Part shown: positions 4,872 through 29,773 of the stretch, piece after piece
Layout of the letters: each line of letters opens with the position of its first letter
How positions within the stretch are numbered: the first letter of the stretch is position 1
Assembly (NCBI GenBank): GCA_041694835.1
Contig: JBGFRZ010000020.1
Span: 1-30,954, forward strand
Direction: 5' to 3'
Length of the DNA stretch: 30,954 nt
DNA from: Ignavibacteria bacterium
Lineage (GTDB): Bacteria > Elusimicrobiota > Endomicrobiia > PHAN01
Translations under genes and position numbers: made by a program
The notes under the pieces: generated by a model
What the model saw: only the letters and a program-made list of their open reading frames with translations
What the model was told of the DNA's origin: nothing
Databases searched by the model: none

Positions 4872-4962
4872 AGTTAGAGCACAAGAGCATAAGTGCACAA
4901 GTCACTCGTCATTCATTATTCACTATTCGCTCTACTGCTCTACTGTTGTGATGCGCTCCTGC
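4872..4962. repeat. Degenerate 7/8-nt tandem array (AAGAGCAC-like, then CACTATT/CTCTACTG-like)
   Basis: tagagcac aagagcat aagtgcac aagt, then cattcattattcactattcgctctactgctctactgtt. Confidence 0.75.
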
Positions 4963-5787: not shown

Positions 5788-5930
5788 AGTTAGAGCACAA
5801 GGCACAAGACAGAACAGTAGAGCAACAGAACAGTAGCGAGTAGATAGGGGATAGGGTTCAGAGGATAGAACCACTTATCCACTATTTGTCATTTGCTATT
5901 CCCTATTGCCTACTGCCTATTGCCTGCCTT
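5788..5930. repeat. Degenerate 7/8-nt tandem array, purine-rich half then pyrimidine-rich half
   Basis: agttagagcacaaggcacaagacagaacagtagagcaacagaacagtag, then tccacta tttgtca tttgcta ttcccta ttgccta ctgccta ttgcctg. Confidence 0.8.
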
Positions 5931-8160: not shown

Positions 8161-9348
8161 TCACATATTTTCATAAAGTTTATCAAGCAAAACGAGCATT
8201 CTTTCAATGCTAAAGCGTGGAAAGCCATCAACACTTTCAAAAACAAATTTTTTCGCGTCGGCGCCGATTTTTTTTCTCTGCTCCCTGCGGTTAATCAGTC
8301 GTATTACCGCTTCCGCTAATTTTTCAGAACTTTTCGGCGGCACAAGTAAGCCCGTCTCTTCGTCTTTAATCAAATATGGTATACCTTGAACACTTGTTGC
8401 AACTACCGGTTTTCCGAGCGAGAATGCCTGAACTATAGTTTTTCCCATTCCTTCGTTTAATGACGGTTGGACATATATATCCATTATAGAGAGTAAATCC
8501 ATTACATCATTCCTCATACCGGTAAAAATAATTTTGTCTTTTATCTCCAAACTCTCAACTCTCAACTCTAAACTCTTTCTTTCAGAGCCGTCTCCCACTA
8601 TTAAAAAAGATATTGAGCGATTAAGCGATTTGGTAATTAAGCGAACGGCATCGACAAAATATTTTATTCCCTTGACGGGTTCAAGGCGCGATACTGTGCC
8701 GATTACAATAGCGTCTTCGGGAATATCTAATGAAGTTCGTAATCTGTCCCCGGCACCCTGTCCTCTGTTCGCTGTCATTTCTACGCCGCTGTGAATTACC
8801 GTCCATTGTTTGGGTCTTCCGACACCAAAAGCAAGCGATTCATTTTTTTCTCCTTCTGTTAATGCAACGAGTTGATTCGTAATTTTGGCCGTTACACGCT
8901 CTAAGAGCAGAAAAAACAACGATTTTAATTTTCCATAATATCCATAAAAAATATGTCCGTGCGGAGTGTGGATTATTTTCATAAGTCGTAAGTCGTAAGT
9001 CGTAAGTCGTAAAAACCATGCTGCCCAGCGGCCGATAAAACCGGCTTTAGAAGTGTGGGTGTGGACAATGTCGGGTTTTTCTTTTTTAATTATTTTATAG
9101 ATTTTCCAGAAAGCGATTATATCTTTTACCGGCGATATTTCTCTCACCAGAGAAGGTAGAAGGTAGAAGGTAAAAGGTAAAAGGGGTGTGGTGGATAGAA
9201 GGGTTTTGTCAAAATCTTGACTTAAACCATAAATCAGAACCATCTCGTATTTATTTTCAGCGACTCCCCGGCAGATCAGAAGAACGGTCTCGGCGGAGCC
9301 GCCTTTATCAAGTCGCGTAATTATGTGCATTACCTTTTTTTTATTCAT
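8161..9348 (-). CDS. Glycosyltransferase family 4 (GT-B)
   Basis: HIITRLDKGG, HTHTSKAG, HTPHG, KG, PSLNEGMG..IVQA (Q where the second E of ExxxxxxxE is expected). Start MNKKK at 9348. Confidence 0.92.
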   Translation of the reverse strand: MNKKKVMHIITRLDKGGSAETVLLICRGVAENKYEMVLIYGLSQDFDKTLLSTTPLLPFTFYLLPSLVREISPVKDIIAFWKIYKIIKKEKPDIVHTHTSKAGFIGRWAAWFLRLTTYDLRLMKIIHTPHGHIFYGYYGKLKSLFFLLLERVTAKITNQLVALTEGEKNESLAFGVGRPKQWTVIHSGVEMTANRGQGAGDRLRTSLDIPEDAIVIGTVSRLEPVKGIKYFVDAVRLITKSLNRSISFLIVGDGSERKSLELRVESLEIKDKIIFTGMRNDVMDLLSIMDIYVQPSLNEGMGKTIVQAFSLGKPVVATSVQGIPYLIKDEETGLLVPPKSSEKLAEAVIRLINRREQRKKIGADAKKFVFESVDGFPRFSIERMLVLLDKLYENM

Positions 9349-10183
9349 AATTTTCAGGTTTTTTCGCAACTGCGAGCAGTGAAGAAGAAATGCAGAACTT
9401 TCTTAAAGACAGGTAAAATATCGCCTGAGCGAAAATATAATAAATGAATTTCACAACTGAAACGAAAAGCCCGCCGAGTTTGCCTCCGGTGCCGTATGGG
9501 TCGCCTGATGTTGGTTTTGAGTTTTGTATTGTGTTTTTTTCAAATCTTGCATTTTTTAACAGATTGTTTAGCGCGGCACTGTTTATACCCCATCTGTGTA
9601 CGATGGCGGGTTGAAGTTTCAGTAATTTAAAAAATTTTGTCTGAGCAACTTTCCAAAATATTTTATGATATGAGAAATTGTTTACTCTAAGAAACAGAAC
9701 TCCGCCGGGTTTCAGTATTCTGTAAATCTCATCCAGTTCTGATTTTGGTTCGGGCAGTAAATCCAAAACCCCCCAGAGCGTAACAATGTCGTAAAATTTT
9801 TCAGACAATCCGAGATTTTGAAGCGGTTTCTCATATACTTTTAATCCCAATTTTTCACGGCAGTATGCGATTGCGTTTGGGGAGATTTCTACACCTTCGC
9901 ACCGCCACCCGTTGTCTGCTGCATATTTCATAAAGTAACCGTGGCCGCAACCGATATCAAGCAATAATCCTTTTCGAGGCAATAGTTTGTTTATATTTTT
10001 GAGTCCCTCCGTAAAGAGTATTTTTTTTGAATGCTGATACACATCTTCTTTATTCTCCGACGGTGGAGAGGGATTTAATTCTTGCCTCGGAGCCGCGCTA
10101 AACGCAATGGCGCACCGACGACATTTTAAATAATTTTCGAGTGTCTCCTTTAGATATTCAGAACCGCATATCGGACAATTCAT
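9341..10183 (-). CDS. Class I SAM-dependent methyltransferase with N-terminal Cys cluster
   Basis: CPIC...CRRC, LLDIGCGHG, GVEIS, ILKPGG. Confidence 0.88.
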   Translation of the reverse strand: MNCPICGSEYLKETLENYLKCRRCAIAFSAAPRQELNPSPPSENKEDVYQHSKKILFTEGLKNINKLLPRKGLLLDIGCGHGYFMKYAADNGWRCEGVEISPNAIAYCREKLGLKVYEKPLQNLGLSEKFYDIVTLWGVLDLLPEPKSELDEIYRILKPGGVLFLRVNNFSYHKIFWKVAQTKFFKLLKLQPAIVHRWGINSAALNNLLKNARFEKNTIQNSKPTSGDPYGTGGKLGGLFVSVVKFIYYIFAQAIFYLSLRKFCISSSLLAVAKKPENYE

Positions 10184-14172: not shown

Positions 14173-15300
14173 TTATTTTTCAAAACATTCAAACACTTCT
14201 AATAATCTCCCTGTCATTTTTTCAACTGTGTAAAGTTTGACTCTCTCAAATCCCCTTTGTCTTAATTCGTTTTTCATATTTTCATTTTTAAGCAATTGCT
14301 CAATTTTGTCGGAGATGTCTTTTGTGTCGCAAGGATTAAAATATAGACAAGCATCGCCAAGAATTTCGGGCATTGAAGAAGTATTTGAACTTACTACCGG
14401 ACAACCACAAGCCATCGCTTCAAGCGGCGGCAGACCGAAACCTTCGTATAACGACGGAAAAATAAAAACGGCGGCACCGCTGTATAATGTGGGTAAATCA
14501 TTATCGGAAATAAAGGGGAGAGGGTAGACGGTAGAAGGTAGATGGCCAGAAACAAAATTTATTGGTTGAGAGTTGAAAAAACTGCCAACGCCGGCAAGAA
14601 CTAAAGAGTATTCCTCTTTTATGTCTTCGCTTAAAAAATTATACGCATCTATAAGACGAACAAGATTTTTATGCGGATTTGAATTTCCGACATAGAGCAG
14701 ATATTTATTTTCAATACCATATTTTTTCCTGAGAACGGCGATTTCTTTTTCGGACTTAGGCAAAAATTGTTCAGACACCGAAGGATAAATCACAGAAATT
14801 TTATCGGGTTCTATTTTTAACAAATTCATTATATCTTCTTTGCTTTTATCGCTCAAAGCGACGATTTTTTCGGAGTTCTTCACATATATATCTAGTAACC
14901 ATTTTTTGTAGATTCTACTTTTAAAGCGACTTTTGTATGGCTCTACGAGCAAGTAAGTTAAATCAAAAAACGAAGATATCTTTTTTATTTTTTGATAGAG
15001 CGGAACTTTCGGATATGGTGAATAAAAAATATCAATCTTTTGTTTTTTCAGAGCAGTTCTTAATTGAATCTGTTCCCAACACAACCGGCATTTCTCGTAA
15101 ATGACAACTCTTTTATATCCTTCTAAAACACTATTTGCAGTGTCGGTGTGTTGATTGCCGAAAAGTATAAACTCCCTGTCATGCTCATTATGTCTTGAAC
15201 AACTACAATAACTCAAAAAATCAACTAAAAATCTTCCTATGCCCGTCAATTTATTCTTTTCCAATTCGCGAATATCAATTCCAATTTTCATTTTTTTCAT
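14173..15300 (-). CDS. Glycosyltransferase family 4
   Basis: IGIDIR..TGIGR, YVG...[22 protein letters not shown]. Confidence 0.93.
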   Translation of the reverse strand: MKKMKIGIDIRELEKNKLTGIGRFLVDFLSYCSCSRHNEHDREFILFGNQHTDTANSVLEGYKRVVIYEKCRLCWEQIQLRTALKKQKIDIFYSPYPKVPLYQKIKKISSFFDLTYLLVEPYKSRFKSRIYKKWLLDIYVKNSEKIVALSDKSKEDIMNLLKIEPDKISVIYPSVSEQFLPKSEKEIAVLRKKYGIENKYLLYVGNSNPHKNLVRLIDAYNFLSEDIKEEYSLVLAGVGSFFNSQPINFVSGHLPSTVYPLPFISDNDLPTLYSGAAVFIFPSLYEGFGLPPLEAMACGCPVVSSNTSSMPEILGDACLYFNPCDTKDISDKIEQLLKNENMKNELRQRGFERVKLYTVEKMTGRLLEVFECFEK

Positions 15301-15337: not shown

Positions 15338-16423
15338 CTAATGATGTTGTTCCAGTGTCTTTATGTAGAGATTTTCCAAGGCGGATAATTGTTTAGTCAA
15401 AGTAAATAGTGAATTTATCTTTCCCCTTGCGTTTATTTCAATCATAGCCCGTTTTTTTTCGTTAGAAATGATTTCCAAAATAGCATTTGCCAATTTTTCT
15501 TTGACGGGTTCTACAAGGACTCCGTCGATATTATGCTCTATTATTTCTTTAGCGCCTCCCAAATTAGTGGCAATAACTACTTTCCCGCAGGACATCCCCT
15601 CTATGATTGTTCTGCCGAATGGTTCGGGTTCTATCGACGGATTAACAACAACATCGCACAGATTCATCAGTTCTGGCACATCGTATCTAAACCCGGCAAA
15701 AATAACTTTGTCTTTTAACTCTAAACTCTCAACTCTCAACTCTAAACTTTTTCTTTCAGGACCGTCCCCAACAATTAGAAAAACGAATGATTGAGCGATT
15801 GAGCGATTGAGCGATTGAGACAAAATTTTTGCCGCTTCAAGAAATAATTTATGCCCTTTCCATGGTTCAATCCGAGAAAATATTCCTATGACTTTCTTAT
15901 TTTGCACTATATTCAACACTTGATATTGATATTCAATGTCAAGTTTGGGCTTGTATTTTTCGGTATCGACAGAATTGCAGATTTTAACAATTTTATCATT
16001 ATTTTTAAGCCAGAAAAATTTTGATTTTACTGCATCGGAAATAACAATAATTTTTGTCGATAAATTACCAATAAGTTTGTCTTTCCAACCAGCGGATTCA
16101 ATCACTCTAACATGCCATATAAAAGGTATTTTTAACAATTTTGAACAAACCGCCGATAAGAAAGCATACTTTACAGTAGGAGCATTACAATGAATTATTG
16201 CAGGAGTAATTTTATAAATATCAAAAAATAAACTCCAGAAAGGTGTGATTTTGTATGAAATATTTTCTTTTTCAAGCGATCTGGTAAACGAGCACTCATT
16301 TGGAACAAATACAACAGGTTCAAATTTTGTTCTATCAAGATATTTTAAGATAAGTAACAAACTTATTTGACCGCCACCCGGAGGTTCTAATGGCATGTCA
16401 AGATACAAAATTTTTATCTTCAT
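15338..16423 (-). CDS. Glycosyltransferase family 4
   Basis: GGGQ, WHVR, SRIEPWKG, EPFGRTIIEGM. Confidence 0.92.
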   Translation of the reverse strand: MKIKILYLDMPLEPPGGGQISLLLILKYLDRTKFEPVVFVPNECSFTRSLEKENISYKITPFWSLFFDIYKITPAIIHCNAPTVKYAFLSAVCSKLLKIPFIWHVRVIESAGWKDKLIGNLSTKIIVISDAVKSKFFWLKNNDKIVKICNSVDTEKYKPKLDIEYQYQVLNIVQNKKVIGIFSRIEPWKGHKLFLEAAKILSQSLNRSIAQSFVFLIVGDGPERKSLELRVESLELKDKVIFAGFRYDVPELMNLCDVVVNPSIEPEPFGRTIIEGMSCGKVVIATNLGGAKEIIEHNIDGVLVEPVKEKLANAILEIISNEKKRAMIEINARGKINSLFTLTKQLSALENLYIKTLEQHH

Positions 16424-17258: not shown

Positions 17259-17599
17259 AGGATGCGGATTTTCGCAGATGAGTTTATAGTTGCTTTAATC
17301 TGCGTTTATCAAAGTTGTTTCTGCGTTCATCTGCGTTCAATTATTTTTTAGGACGCAGATTTACAGGATTATCGCAGATTAAAAACTTTACCACGAAATC
17401 ACGAAAATTAGAAATCACAAAATTCTTTACAAGTATTTTCGTGTTTTTGCACTTTCGTGGTTCAAATCTTTTTTCATCTGCGTCTATCTGCGTTCAAAAA
17501 TAAAAAAGCGGAGTAGAAATAGGACGCAGGCCTTCGCAGATGAGTTTATAGTTGCTTTAATCTGCGTTTATCAAAGTTGTTTCTGCGTTCATCTGCGTT
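17258..17599. repeat. Three tandem palindromic units TAGGAYGCRG...ATCTGCGTT, with a 67-bp perfect direct repeat and a nested ACCACGAAA/TTTCGTGGT hairpin
   Basis: 17271-17337 is identical to 17533-17599; the middle unit 17349-17495 carries the nested element. Confidence 0.88.
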
Positions 17600-18584
17600 T
17601 TAAACTAATGTTAACAATTCTTTTTATCCTGCCAAAATCAAACATAATGTCAGCGGTCAATTTTATAAAAGGGAAAAGCAAAAAAGTTATTATTTTTTTT
17701 GTAGATGAAAAATTGTATGGATAAAAATAACTGAACATAAATCTTGTTCTAGATATCTGTAAAAAATACCATATAAAAAATGCCCCCGGCAAAATCATCC
17801 AGTTAAATATAAAACTCAATACCATAACAGGTAAAATTTTTAATATTACTGATGTTGAAATTAAATATTTAATATGAACAGTATGTTTTAAAAAAAGTTC
17901 TGCATCTGCTATTCCACGCCTTAAATACCACCGACACATGTCAAAAAAGTTTGTCTTTGAATAATGCCATAGTAATGCATTGGGGATATATCTAAATTGG
18001 TTCACTCCAAATTTTTTTGTTATTCTTATTCCTAAATCTGTATCTTCTCCACCATGAAAGTTTCTAAAATCAAAATACCCTGCTTCTTCTATGACAGATT
18101 TTTTTAAAATCATGTTACATCCGGTTACCTGAGATATTGATATAACCTTTCCTTTTGAAAAATTATGAAACCTAAAGCCCCCACCTGGATGGCCCATAAC
18201 ACCTTCTGAAAAACTTATGATATTAGCATTTTTGGGAATTGGAAATGTAGTACCCATAGCCCCTGCTATTTCTTTATTTTCCTTGATAACTCTTGTTAAA
18301 TTCTCAAACCAGTCGTTTGTAATTTCTTCATCATCGTCTATAAAAATTATATATTCACCTGTTGCATTTTTAACACCCAAATTTCTTTGAGCGCTAAAGC
18401 CCGCCTCCATTTTTGGAATTCTTATATGTTTGATATTACCATCAACTGATAGTTCTTCTAAAATATCTGATGCTTCTACAATTATTATTTCCAAATTTTT
18501 AGGAACAGATTTTAATAAACTTTCAAGACCATTTGTTAAATAATCTCTATTGTCTTTTGAGATTATAATTATTGAGTATTTCAT
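17589..18584 (-). CDS. Glycosyltransferase family 2
   Basis: YSIIII, QRNLG, IFIDDD, GCNM, GEDTDL; C-terminal TM helices. Start moved to MKYS at 18584. Confidence 0.9.
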   Translation of the reverse strand: MKYSIIIISKDNRDYLTNGLESLLKSVPKNLEIIIVEASDILEELSVDGNIKHIRIPKMEAGFSAQRNLGVKNATGEYIIFIDDDEEITNDWFENLTRVIKENKEIAGAMGTTFPIPKNANIISFSEGVMGHPGGGFRFHNFSKGKVISISQVTGCNMILKKSVIEEAGYFDFRNFHGGEDTDLGIRITKKFGVNQFRYIPNALLWHYSKTNFFDMCRWYLRRGIADAELFLKHTVHIKYLISTSVILKILPVMVLSFIFNWMILPGAFFIWYFLQISRTRFMFSYFYPYNFSSTKKIITFLLFPFIKLTADIMFDFGRIKRIVNISLKRR

Positions 18585-28019: not shown

Positions 28020-28020
28020 A

Positions 28021-28186
28021 AATAGATAGCAGGTAGAGATAAAGATAGAGAATAGCAAATAGAGGTGAGAGATGAGAGAATAGCAAATAGCGAATAGTGG
28101 ATGGTGGCTGGTGACTGGATGAAACGAGCCACGAGCCACCATCTTCTCTGTCCTCTGACCTCTGTTCTCTGTTTTCTGCCCTCTGT
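28021..28186. repeat. Mosaic 7-nt tandem array, purine-rich half then pyrimidine-rich half
   Basis: atagcaa atagagg tgagaga tgagaga atagcaa atagcga atagtgg atggtgg ctggtga ... tgtcctc tgacctc tgttctc tgttttc tgccctc. Confidence 0.85.
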
Positions 28187-29773
28187 TTATATTCCTGCCC
28201 GTATTACAAGTATCAACGAGAGCAAACTCAGCCAAGGCATTACATTCTGGAGCCACCAGTTGGCCGAGGATATCGTCTTTTTAGGAAGATATATGGTGTC
28301 GTCGACTTTAAGCTCGATGTCCGCTTTTTTACCTTTCAAAATTTCGTCAACATTAACCGCTATGAACTTCGTCTTATCGCCTTCTTTTCTCAGAATAGAA
28401 ACCGACGATATCTTCGCCGTTTCTGAGAATCCGCCCGCAAGCGATATCGCTTCAAGCAGCTTGAGATTTTCTCTGAAGTCGTAGTTCCCGGGATGCCTTA
28501 CATCACCAAGCACCGATATCTTTTTTGCACCGACAGAAACCTCAACCATATCGGCCGGTTCCAGCAAAAAATCTTTAGAAAAATCGCCAGTTTTTATTAT
28601 TTCATCTATGTCCACAATAAACGTTTTTTTGGAAGCGCCTTCGCCGCGATAAATTTTTATTCCCCTCCTGTTCGCCTTTTCGGTAAAACCGCCGGCTTGT
28701 GAAATAAGCTCAATAAGTCTTAAATTTTCTCTGTATGGAAATCCGCCCGTAGATTTAACCTCGCCTGTTATAAATATCCGCCTTTTCGCGTACTGTTTTA
28801 CTATCACCGAAACCTCCGGGCTTGAGATGTATTTCGAATAAAGCTTTTTAAGCTTCTCCGAAAGTTTCTCGACGGTTTCGCCTTTGGCGTTCAAAACACC
28901 CACCAAAGGTAGTGTTATCTCGCCGCCCGGCTCTACAACGACCTCCCTGGAAAGCTCTTCGGCCGGATAGATGTTCACCGTCAAAATATCCCCCGGCTCG
29001 ATTTTATATCCTGTCCTTTTTATGACGGGCGACTCCACCCGAATATCCCGCTTTGAAGTTTCTACGGCAACTGCGGGGGATGGCGGAGGCGTTTCTTTCT
29101 TTATTTCCGAGTTCTCTTTTTTAACGACGATGGAAAAGCCGGAGTCTTTTTCTTTTATCTGATAGTTTGCGGGTTTTTTCAAAAAAACCACAACCCTGAC
29201 TATCAGCGGCTCTTTTTCAAACTGCCCGGCCTTCACCTTTTCGATGGTTTCCGATTTCACAAAAATCTCTTTCTCTTCTTTGGTGAAATCGACTGTTACG
29301 CCATACAAATCAAGTATTATTTTGGGGGCAACAAGCGGGTCGGGATCTTTGAGCAAGAAACTGTTGGAACTTTTGGGTTTGTCGGAGATGATTTCCACGT
29401 TGAGGGAATCGCCGAGGTCATCTACGGTGATTTTTTTTACGGACGAAATGGGTGGCTTTCGCGATTTTTCCTTAAACGGTTCTTCTTTGCGAATCGTCTT
29501 TTTTCTTTGTTTTTCCTGCAGCGATATCGCGTTTTCAAGTTCCGTAAAATCGAGATTCTTTCCCTTATATTTCGATTTTATCTTTAGAAGTATGGCAAGG
29601 CGGTCATTCGGCGAAAGATTTTGCGACGACGAGACCTTGTAGTAGTATTTCAGGGAGGCTTCAAGGTCGTCCTGTGTGTAAGCCGATAAATTTTCTGGCA
29701 GGAAATTTATCAGCGACACAAATAATACTGCCGGAATTAATTTCAAAATCTGTTTCATTAAAATCCGAAACAT
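28187..29773 (-). CDS. wza: Polysaccharide export protein (Poly_export + SLBB repeats) with N-terminal AMIN-like domain
   Basis: YKIEPGDILTV..VEPGGEITLPLVG, ITGEV..AGGF, VLGDV..AGGF, C-terminal hydrophobic helix; PKIILDL..KVKAGQF...VRVVV resembles AMIN. Confidence 0.88.
   Translation of the reverse strand: MFRILMKQILKLIPAVLFVSLINFLPENLSAYTQDDLEASLKYYYKVSSSQNLSPNDRLAILLKIKSKYKGKNLDFTELENAISLQEKQRKKTIRKEEPFKEKSRKPPISSVKKITVDDLGDSLNVEIISDKPKSSNSFLLKDPDPLVAPKIILDLYGVTVDFTKEEKEIFVKSETIEKVKAGQFEKEPLIVRVVVFLKKPANYQIKEKDSGFSIVVKKENSEIKKETPPPSPAVAVETSKRDIRVESPVIKRTGYKIEPGDILTVNIYPAEELSREVVVEPGGEITLPLVGVLNAKGETVEKLSEKLKKLYSKYISSPEVSVIVKQYAKRRIFITGEVKSTGGFPYRENLRLIELISQAGGFTEKANRRGIKIYRGEGASKKTFIVDIDEIIKTGDFSKDFLLEPADMVEVSVGAKKISVLGDVRHPGNYDFRENLKLLEAISLAGGFSETAKISSVSILRKEGDKTKFIAVNVDEILKGKKADIELKVDDTIYLPKKTISSANWWLQNVMPWLSLLSLILVIRAGI

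Follow-up and report, generated by a model that had tools for sequence, protein, structure and literature searches.

Five short tracts of tandem 7- or 8-nt words, here named A through E, are translated in frame within a single GT4 glycosyltransferase (GT) gene on contig JBGFRZ010000020.1 of an Elusimicrobiota bacterium (assembly GCA_041694835.1, deposited as Ignavibacteria bacterium). The explanation that we favour, with slightly better than even confidence, is that these tracts are local instances of a class of word arrays which is found throughout the genome and which arises at the level of DNA, by template switching or patch conversion together with slippage, and is then filtered by selection. 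In what follows the window is this whole contig of 30,954 nt, and the genome studied is G000, a metagenome assembly of 1.9 Mb in 89 contigs with 42.5% G+C; other G numbers denote genomes of relatives, C numbers contigs, L numbers loci and P numbers database homologues. At several well-anchored sites the arrays replace native codons with little or no change in length, and nothing in their presence implies a function for the host gene.

The tracts lie within positions 8543-9185 and all fall inside one open frame on the reverse strand, 8161-9369, which encodes 402 aa from the TTG at 9369 or 389 aa from the ATG at 9330. The enzyme is complete: Glycos_transf_1 (PF00534, E 1.3e-43) and Glyco_transf_4 (PF13439, E 8.7e-18) both score over the Pfam cut-off, both Rossmann-like domains and the conserved C-terminal motifs are present, and 62 invariant columns are common to 26 homologues. 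Homologues are at most 62% identical and carry the source labels Endomicrobiia or Elusimicrobiota. All tracts are given here on the coding (reverse) strand. Tract A (9151-9185) consists of 4.9 copies of ACCTTYT, encodes PLLPFTFYLLPS and lies over the strand before LVREISP; Tandem Repeats Finder (TRF) calls it at 9151-9184 with period 7, 4.9 copies and 96% matches. Tract B (8982-9012) is a perfect array of 4.4 copies of CGACTTA (TRF 8982-9012, period 7, 4.4 copies, 100%) with the peptide LRLTTYDLRL, in the variable segment after GRWAAW. Tract C (8744-8778, peptide TANRGQGAGDR) occupies the variable linker between both GT domains; it is degenerate and ACAGAGG-like, and is not called by TRF even with a score of 30, but holds one exact unit of ACAGAGG, which is the commonest family of G000. 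Tract D (8612-8643, peptide RLITKSLNRS) is a weak octamer array of CGCTYAAT with 2.4 tandem copies and one separated copy, of which TRF calls only the 2.4 copies at 8612-8630 (period 8, 90%). Tract E (8550-8577) has 3.9 copies of GAGAGTT with T variants that avoid TGA (TRF 8550-8576, period 7, 3.9 copies, 95% matches) and encodes KSLELRVESLE in the helix after GDGSER. The placement on helices and strands is presumed from alignment and from the GT-B fold. No complementary partner for tracts A to E was found inside the gene, and the tracts do not form palindromes of the kind known as Rickettsia palindromic elements (RPEs).

Each tract was compared with 2000 synonymous-codon shuffles and 2000 codon shuffles of the gene, taking the best window of the same length anywhere in the shuffled sequence by its number of lag matches. 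Tract A, with 26 of 28 lag-7 matches, and tract B, with 24 of 24, were not reached in any shuffle of either kind, and tract E (19 of 21) was reached in a fraction of 0.0045 of the synonymous shuffles and in no codon shuffle. The remaining two are not significant alone: tract D has 15 of 24 lag-8 matches (reached in 0.52 of synonymous and 0.065 of codon shuffles) and tract C has 16 of 28 lag-7 matches (0.73 and 0.12). Tracts A, B and E are strong period-7 arrays far beyond chance, while C and D are degenerate. The five tracts in one open GT frame read just as the initial annotation had described them, and TRF calls four of the five, but its description of five tandem repeats holds beyond chance for A, B and E only.

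Insertion and replacement were distinguished by comparing the gene, as DNA and as protein, with up to 14 orthologue loci of relatives (53-63% identity) and with the 26 database homologues. The segment with tract E is 29 residues long in eight of the nine loci compared, the ninth carrying an unrelated insertion. Its lag-7 identity is 0.69 in G000 and 0.20-0.49 in the orthologues, and five differences from the orthologue L005 are synonymous changes which match the unit; tract E is thus a replacement in place of the helix after GDGSER. The region of D and E together is 56 residues long, one or two fewer than in five of six orthologues (57-58), and the linker with tract C has 41 aa, against 37-45 in 10 orthologues. 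The segment with tract B equals in length that of six of 11 orthologue loci, is 6 aa longer than L002 and, by alignment, 7 longer than P0003; on the same residues the homologue in G038, which is 39% identical, carries a different array, 4.3 copies of CATTACA. The segment around tract A measures 57 aa, and its counterpart in each of the three closest orthologues (L002-L004) 50, a net gain of 7 aa which equals three units, and the native F-T-x-Y is retained. By these alignments, the same gene shows both replacement and insertion or expansion. The idea that the repeats stand in place of native elements is accordingly borne out at tract E and fails at tract A, with its net 7 additional residues.

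The same kind of array is found all over G000. Exact arrays of at least three copies number one at period 5, one at period 6, 104 at period 7, 13 at period 8 and none at period 9, and at a TRF score of at least 40 there are 384 period-7 and 141 period-8 arrays, compared to 0 and 0 in a fifth-order Markov genome of the same size. The unit pool comprises 181 canonical heptamers and 156 octamers, and the top seven heptamers have 34-50 arrays each: ACAGAGG (50 arrays), AAGAGCAC (47), AATAGCG (42), AAGTGCAC (42), ACGAGCC (41), AAATAGC (40) and ACTATCT (34). By gene calls which are crude, open reading frame (ORF)-based and tend to over-extend at the starts (1620 genes, 88% coding), 195 of the 384 period-7 arrays are wholly within ORFs, 28 partly so and 161 intergenic. 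The arrays are therefore not predominantly intergenic, although per base the intergenic DNA is still about 6-fold richer. At least one array is held by 248 of the 1620 ORFs and at least four by 34, the GT gene included. Within ORFs, 197 period-7 arrays (score at least 40) were counted, 22 times the average of 8.8 that five synonymous-codon shuffles gave, and codon shuffles gave 0; the corresponding values for period 8 are 69, 1.8 and 0, and periods 6, 9 and 11 show no difference. The excess over synonymous shuffles means that the periodicity is a property of the DNA, synonymous sites included. The refuting condition named in the initial annotation, period-7 tracts no more frequent than in synonymous shuffles, accordingly does not hold. 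The process is not special to this gene but belongs to a genome-wide repeat class.

The marks of selection are visible in how the arrays are read. Where a unit is stop-free in all phases on one strand only, 228 arrays have that strand as the coding one and 51 the other, and units with stops on both strands (e.g., AATCAGT) are intergenic only. Read in one phase, the tract E unit GAGAGTT would yield TGA, and exactly there the copies have T for G. Exact period-7 runs of at least 25 nt are found 49 times in ORFs and four times between genes (92%, the coding fraction being 88%), and runs of at least 17 nt 213 and 106 times, respectively, the shorter or decayed runs piling up between genes; this distribution would fit a process that hits all DNA alike and whose products are then purged from genes.

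Among relatives the arrays are scarce in what could be sampled: in samples of at most 20 kb from 19 genomes there are 0-2 period-7 arrays (score at least 40) each, against six in the window. The same-family relative G002 has a 30.7-copy array of CTTCTTA on contig C8 (L017:1405-1619), and a 4.3-kb sample of G017 (L034) has six period-7 rows, so that the array load among relatives is patchy and not nil. Allowing two mismatches, (GAGAGTT)3 is present in 27 and (CAGAGGA)3 in four of 301 Elusimicrobiota genomes, and neither of the two was found in the two same-family genomes. A control with the reversed pattern is valid for CAGAGGA, which gives 130 matches in G000 against 0 for the control, and invalid for GAGAGTT, the reversal of which is a rotation of the same unit.

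Units are drawn from a pool that unrelated loci have in common. Two consecutive tract E units, with one mismatch allowed, occur in 47 places of G000, in both orientations, in ORFs as well as between genes. A paralogous GT4 gene in the window (15338-16423, reverse strand), which is 30% identical overall, has the same ERKSLELRVESLE where tract E lies in the first gene and, where tract D lies, a perfect octamer array. The former is the heptamer tract ERKSLELRVESLEL at 15717-15748 (recognized by TRF, BLASTP and DNA comparison), and the latter is 3.9 copies of TCGCTCAA at 15789-15819 (TRF 100%), with the peptide SQSLNRSIAQS. Tract D, weak by itself, gains support from this perfect array at the same position. 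Although the tracts are nearly identical in the two genes, the 24 nt between them differ at six positions, for which reason gene conversion between the GT paralogues is not favoured as the probable source of the common tracts. An identical 32-nt tract is present in the paralogue and in the gene for CysRS (peptide KSLELRVESLEL), and a third GT4 gene (14173-15300, reverse strand) contains at 14519-14542 a TRF-called array of 3.4 copies of CTACCKT, of the tract A family.

Arrays are present in essential enzymes as well. Pfam gave names to twenty array-bearing ORFs, and several of these were compared by alignment with solved structures and with the orthologues of five Elusimicrobiota genomes. Tracts were found within CysRS, IleRS, LeuRS, ProRS, CarB, HisC, ArgJ, PurM and PyrD, and thus are not restricted to dispensable surface genes. 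In CysRS (G000:C43:11799-13205), 4.9 copies of the tract E unit GAGAGTT encode the peptide named above, in a stretch which aligns without gaps to two PDB enzymes and to four of five Elusimicrobiota orthologues. In G053 these flanking codons enclose a native-looking AKIPLAEL of equal length, and G038 has at this site a decayed copy of the same array. The native flanks in G053 (AGAAGTTTGGAG ... GAATTGGC) resemble the unit at both borders, which would fit two-ended microhomology in this single case. In an FTCD-type cyclodeaminase (FTCD_C, C9:16324-16902) a perfect 32-nt array encodes KLSTLNSQLST and aligns without gaps to two PDB chains and two of three Elusimicrobiota orthologues; these codons are occupied in G038 by a related array that has decayed and in G053 by another one, 4.4 copies of CTGCAAT, so that three genomes have three period-7 sequences at one site. 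The IleRS gene of G000 has 4.1 copies of ATCCCCT, and on exactly those codons, between identical flanks and over an equal length, that of G053 has a perfect AACTCTC array; the units are unrelated, and slippage cannot turn the one into the other. The recurrent sites are residues 76-87 of CysRS, 63-73 of FTCD_C and 247-256 of IleRS. Plain insertion of a 27-35-nt tract would give +9 to +12 residues. The observed differences are +1 to +4 residues in LeuRS, +3 in HisC, and +3 and +12 for two tracts in ArgJ, and eight of 11 reasonably anchored solitary tracts differ by at most three residues from most comparison sequences. The tract in UDP-GlcNAc 2-epimerase is ambiguous, being 9 aa longer than 5enz and of equal span to 1f6d. 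Long composite blocks, on the other hand, are true insertions, such as the approximately 90 residues in HisF, and composite hairpin blocks of this kind would qualify as RPE-like. The view of the initial annotation that segments are rewritten rather than inserted into is, in sum, upheld by tract E, CysRS and FTCD_C, all length-neutral, and contradicted by the 7 added residues of tract A and by the tract B segment, which varies by 6-7 residues.

Concerning the relatives used in these comparisons, AroA, CysRS and FTCD_C are 66-73% identical to the proteins of G038 and G053, which bear only the label "same phylum"; AroA is 55% identical to that of the same-family G001, and IleRS and LeuRS are closest to G001. 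The affinities to G038 and G053 suggest gene transfer or uneven relatedness, and that lineage also has two repeat unit families in common with G000.

From these patterns we infer a mechanism of patch writing. A few bases of microhomology would prime a template switch during replication or repair synthesis, either to an array elsewhere or to the local array in a slipped register, and four to five units would be copied before synthesis returns, such that a patch is overwritten and not inserted. Slippage would then alter the copy number in three-unit steps, which keep the frame and amount to 7 or 8 residues, and would keep the arrays homogeneous, while selection would purge patches that cause stops, frame shifts or disturbance of the fold. 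The recurrence of arrays at helices and loops, which might look like hot spots, would follow from the tolerance of such sites for a 7-residue-periodic peptide under selection.

A possible protein partner is suggested by PF05635, the family of proteins encoded by intervening sequences of 23S rRNA genes (23S_rRNA_IVP), which has been likened to Avd, a protein of diversity-generating retroelements (DGRs), in the available text of the source (PMC10053308). G000 has 12 full and three partial copies (contigs C52, C55, C81, C6, C39, C8 and C7; L065-L076), none of them in the window. Each full copy has a word array at most about 55 nt upstream and a complementary array just downstream, with words that vary by copy. 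The arms of these cassettes use six of the seven commonest unit families of G000, and 277 of 1165 arrays outside the arms have a unit in common with an arm, compared to a mean of 14.5 and a maximum of 66 in letter-shuffled controls. Across the 301 sampled Elusimicrobiota genomes PF05635 is present in 24 of 28 array-positive and 66 of 273 other genomes, an odds ratio of 18.8 in which kin are not independent; it falls to 7.0 after dropping two large clades without both, and the control family RVT_1 gives 2.7 (all) and 1.8 (clades dropped). It should be noted that the association rests on two unit families and that the arms are themselves arrays. The co-occurring gene family that had been proposed as something to look for was thus found in PF05635, to the extent of an association uncorrected for kinship, and we regard it as a lead and not as a result. 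At 97% completeness G000 gave no match to reverse transcriptase (PF00078, RVT_1); it does have one Y1 transposase.

Several observations weigh against the scenario of template switching, slippage and selection. No close relatives were found in the collections searched (best 61-63% protein identity), and no event was caught. The identical tract in three genes could be convergent, since its T/G pattern is forced by stop avoidance. At CysRS and FTCD_C a length-neutral homogenization of an older array, by gain and then loss of three units, may have taken place, as both sites bear a decayed array in G038. Of the arrays inside ORFs, 176 of 510 fall within the opening tenth of their ORF, and some of them may really belong to upstream DNA. 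Solitary tracts do have a typical size, which speaks for patch writing, period-7 tracts having a median length of 30 nt both in ORFs (n = 42, interquartile range 28-32) and between genes (n = 39), and solitary period-8 tracts one of 34 nt, but the lower side of this patch-length distribution is censored by the score threshold. Only tract D of the five has a PF05635 arm unit (that of the cassette at C55:39714), the other four families not being arm units. Finally, AroA (C70:26770-28035) was withdrawn as an example of replacement in place, the relatives carrying nearly the same quasi-periodic AT-rich sequence.

How far ordinary slipped-strand simple-sequence repeats (SSRs) would suffice has to be weighed against these same data. 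Chance proto-repeats would expand, three-unit steps would survive in genes, and overwriting would be only apparent, a concerted expansion and contraction of old arrays. The 7 aa gained at tract A, the variation by 6-7 aa of the tract B segment among homologues and the decay in G038 of arrays that are perfect in G000 all agree with this; a preference for 7 nt arising from the polymerase footprint has been proposed in print (in the accessible part of PMC4692102); and with MutS and MutL present in G000 a special repair defect is neither needed nor seen, the loss of mismatch repair being ruled out as a cause. Slippage cannot, however, exchange unrelated unit families on the same codons, as between G000 and G053 in IleRS, it leaves unexplained why a few unit families occur at dozens of unrelated loci in both orientations and why the length differences are 0 to +4 residues and not multiples of seven, and in the CysRS helix it would need viable intermediates with seven residues more or less. 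On balance it is unlikely. That the heptamer tracts are contingency loci, in which one-unit slippage would switch surface-polysaccharide GTs in phase variation, is very improbable. A one-unit change of a 7-nt repeat does shift the frame, and by Pfam the gene does lie in a surface-polysaccharide locus, with WbqC, a PIG-L deacetylase, a methyltransferase, two further GT4 genes (three in all) and a Poly_export/SLBB exporter; yet tracts are present also in essential single-copy enzymes (CysRS, IleRS, LeuRS, CarB and ProRS), where the off state would be lethal, every tract seen is in frame, and five switches in one gene would make no regulatory sense.

A dedicated system built around the cassettes of PF05635, an Avd-like four-helix-bundle protein, and writing or spreading the word arrays is highly doubtful in our view, even though 15 full or partial copies in 1.9 Mb, the complementary arrays around the full ones, the use of six of the seven commonest families as arm units and an association well above that of RVT_1 are what it would lead one to expect. 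The association lacks phylogenetic correction and is limited to two unit families, the link is perhaps partly circular with arms that are arrays, and cassettes may merely settle in hairpins. In addition, PF05635 has no match in four of the array-positive genomes, both array families are absent from several genomes that have 6-10 copies of it, and neither the missing reverse transcriptase nor the arm unit in just one of five tracts speaks for it. It is scarcely credible, lastly, that the tracts are assembly or sequencing artefacts or were selected for the 7-residue-periodic peptides they encode. G000 is, admittedly, an 89-contig metagenome assembly, and some peptides, e.g., LSTLNSQ, have a heptad-like hydrophobic spacing. 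The tracts are nevertheless far below read length, keep the frame, are oriented so as to avoid stops and spare conserved residues, and independent assemblies of other genomes have arrays at the same sites; selection on peptides would neither fix synonymous sites nor fill intergenic DNA.

Between genes the arrays of G000 are combined into composite elements, in which flanks recur and arrays have complementary partners. At 28020-28190 of the window the arrays AATAGCA, AGAGRTG, GGTGGCT/ACGAGCC and CTCTGTC, of unit families also seen in coding tracts, fold as one long imperfect hairpin (-34.8 kcal/mol when folded as DNA, z -3.9, a value that none of 200 shuffles attained). The intergenic copy of a tract C-type unit that the initial annotation had reported corresponds to the CTCTGTC array in this element, which is real (28146-28186, 5.9 copies by TRF). 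Between two genes at 4876-4945 TRF calls octamer arrays of AGAGCACA and GCTCTACT, and at 5790-5930, also intergenic, purine-rich word arrays followed by pyrimidine-rich ones (CTATTGC, 4.3 copies). In the intergenic stretch 17264-17600, octamer arrays of the CACGAAAT type form a hairpin that is enclosed by a direct repeat of about 70 nt (near 17274 and 17531), and several short inverted repeats are present as well. A near-identical element composed of ctggtgactggaggaa, ACGAGCC repeats and cgctgctctgctgccc is dispersed in more than 15 copies through G000, as a small hairpin with GGTGGCT/ACGAGCC arms that resembles repetitive extragenic palindromes or miniature inverted-repeat transposable elements (e.g., C23:13408, C52:35638, C56:26730, C7:4007, and 28100-28143 of the window). 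Many ORFs of G000 start with array-written hydrophobic peptides (ALRHFILSPLTSHLS... or IRYSLFAICY...) beside the recurrent flank aataaaatgccgta, for example at C53:5311-5420, C75:22638 and C87:4779; these are either signal-peptide-like leaders or upstream hairpins in over-long ORF calls. Two giant repeat-domain proteins (C66:3-24671, more than 8000 aa, and C77:9955-26223, more than 5400 aa) have the octamer-written TPSLNRSIAQSL at the same position in several domain copies.

If overwriting at constant length is real, it is a new mode of bacterial protein change in which helices or loops of about ten residues are replaced at once, recurrently and at the same tolerant sites, those of aminoacyl-tRNA synthetases included; it would provide a testable mechanism, with PF05635 as candidate partner family, for the unexplained heptanucleotide excess of bacteria. 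It is distinctly unlikely that the Elusimicrobiota harbour an active process which overwrites about 30 nt of any DNA, that of essential genes too, with four to five pooled 7- or 8-nt words and has PF05635 as its protein partner. Such patch writing would be an analogue of targeted sequence replacement that is free of reverse transcriptase, and an unrecognized source of turnover of protein segments. In practical terms, word tracts introduce distortions when uncultured lineages are aligned, placed in trees or modelled by homology, and should not be taken for phase-variation switches.

Among known systems the nearest are the heptanucleotide repeats of other bacteria. Heptanucleotide SSRs were reportedly found to be over-represented in bacteria in a survey of 2007, and the heptamer repeats of cyanobacteria are named STRR sequences. 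The bacterial excess, and the idea that the polymerase footprint favours slippage by 7 nt, are cited by Rehm et al. (2015; PMC4692102), where GGGAATC and GGGGA(T/C)T repeats of Xanthomonas and Nostoc are also treated. Going by the available portion of that paper, these repeats are like ours in their 7-nt tandem units, in having several families per genome dispersed over hundreds of places, where convergent or complementary pairs are frequent, and in their unexplained function and origin; they are described as mainly intergenic, whereas here about half are in ORFs and in frame, with an 8-nt class and length-neutral replacement of codons at anchored sites, and the phyla named there do not include the Elusimicrobiota. 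The TAACTGA direct repeats that marine Beggiatoaceae have in common with Cyanobacteria and Bacteroidetes, 24 sets of which lie in ORFs or overlap them (MacGregor, 2015; PMC4679880), likewise form a heptamer family with a patchy distribution over distant phyla, a minority in ORFs and in variable surface loops, and an orientation limited by stops. They differ in consisting of a single unit mostly located just upstream of starts, their ORF sets are mostly peripheral, and same-length replacement in conserved enzymes goes unreported in the text at hand. The process that the initial annotation called undescribed is therefore, as far as the accessible parts of both papers go, already represented in print by the heptanucleotide excess and by a few in-frame cases (PMC4692102, PMC4679880), and at most the length-neutral overwriting would be new. 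Repeats of constant size and variable sequence have been described in Bacillus (Subirana and Messeguer, 2021; PMC8161180). In the full-text literature, where subscription journals are mostly outside coverage, no paper was found on same-length in-frame overwriting by heptamers or on a link between PF05635 and heptamers.

Other repeats that enter proteins are less similar. RPEs are palindromic in-frame insertions of at least 100 nt which add residues to housekeeping proteins, and as selfish in-frame repeats tolerated at permissive sites they resemble the composite hairpin blocks of G000, such as that in HisF; the five tracts, unlike RPEs, consist of tandem words with one arm only, are about 30 nt long, and in several cases leave the number of residues unchanged. 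The repeat units in ORFs of Borgs are said to be multiples of three. Borg tandem repeats inside ORFs create disordered protein regions (PMC9879509, in the part available) and are alike in being rapidly evolving tandem repeats that make new peptide segments, but the 7- and 8-nt units of G000 are read in all three frames and replace native segments. DGRs also rewrite a coding segment from a template elsewhere without changing its length (PMC10053308, as far as its available text goes), and the Avd-like PF05635 is abundant in G000; they are unlike the present case in that no reverse transcriptase was found in G000, that the targets are many, that the tracts show no adenine-specific pattern, and that they are tandem words and not a long repeat pair (no search for template and variable repeats was made). 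The arrays of G000 thus belong with the known heptanucleotide repeats but differ from them in the share that lies in genes, in the 8-nt class, in same-length replacement within conserved enzymes and in the link to PF05635.

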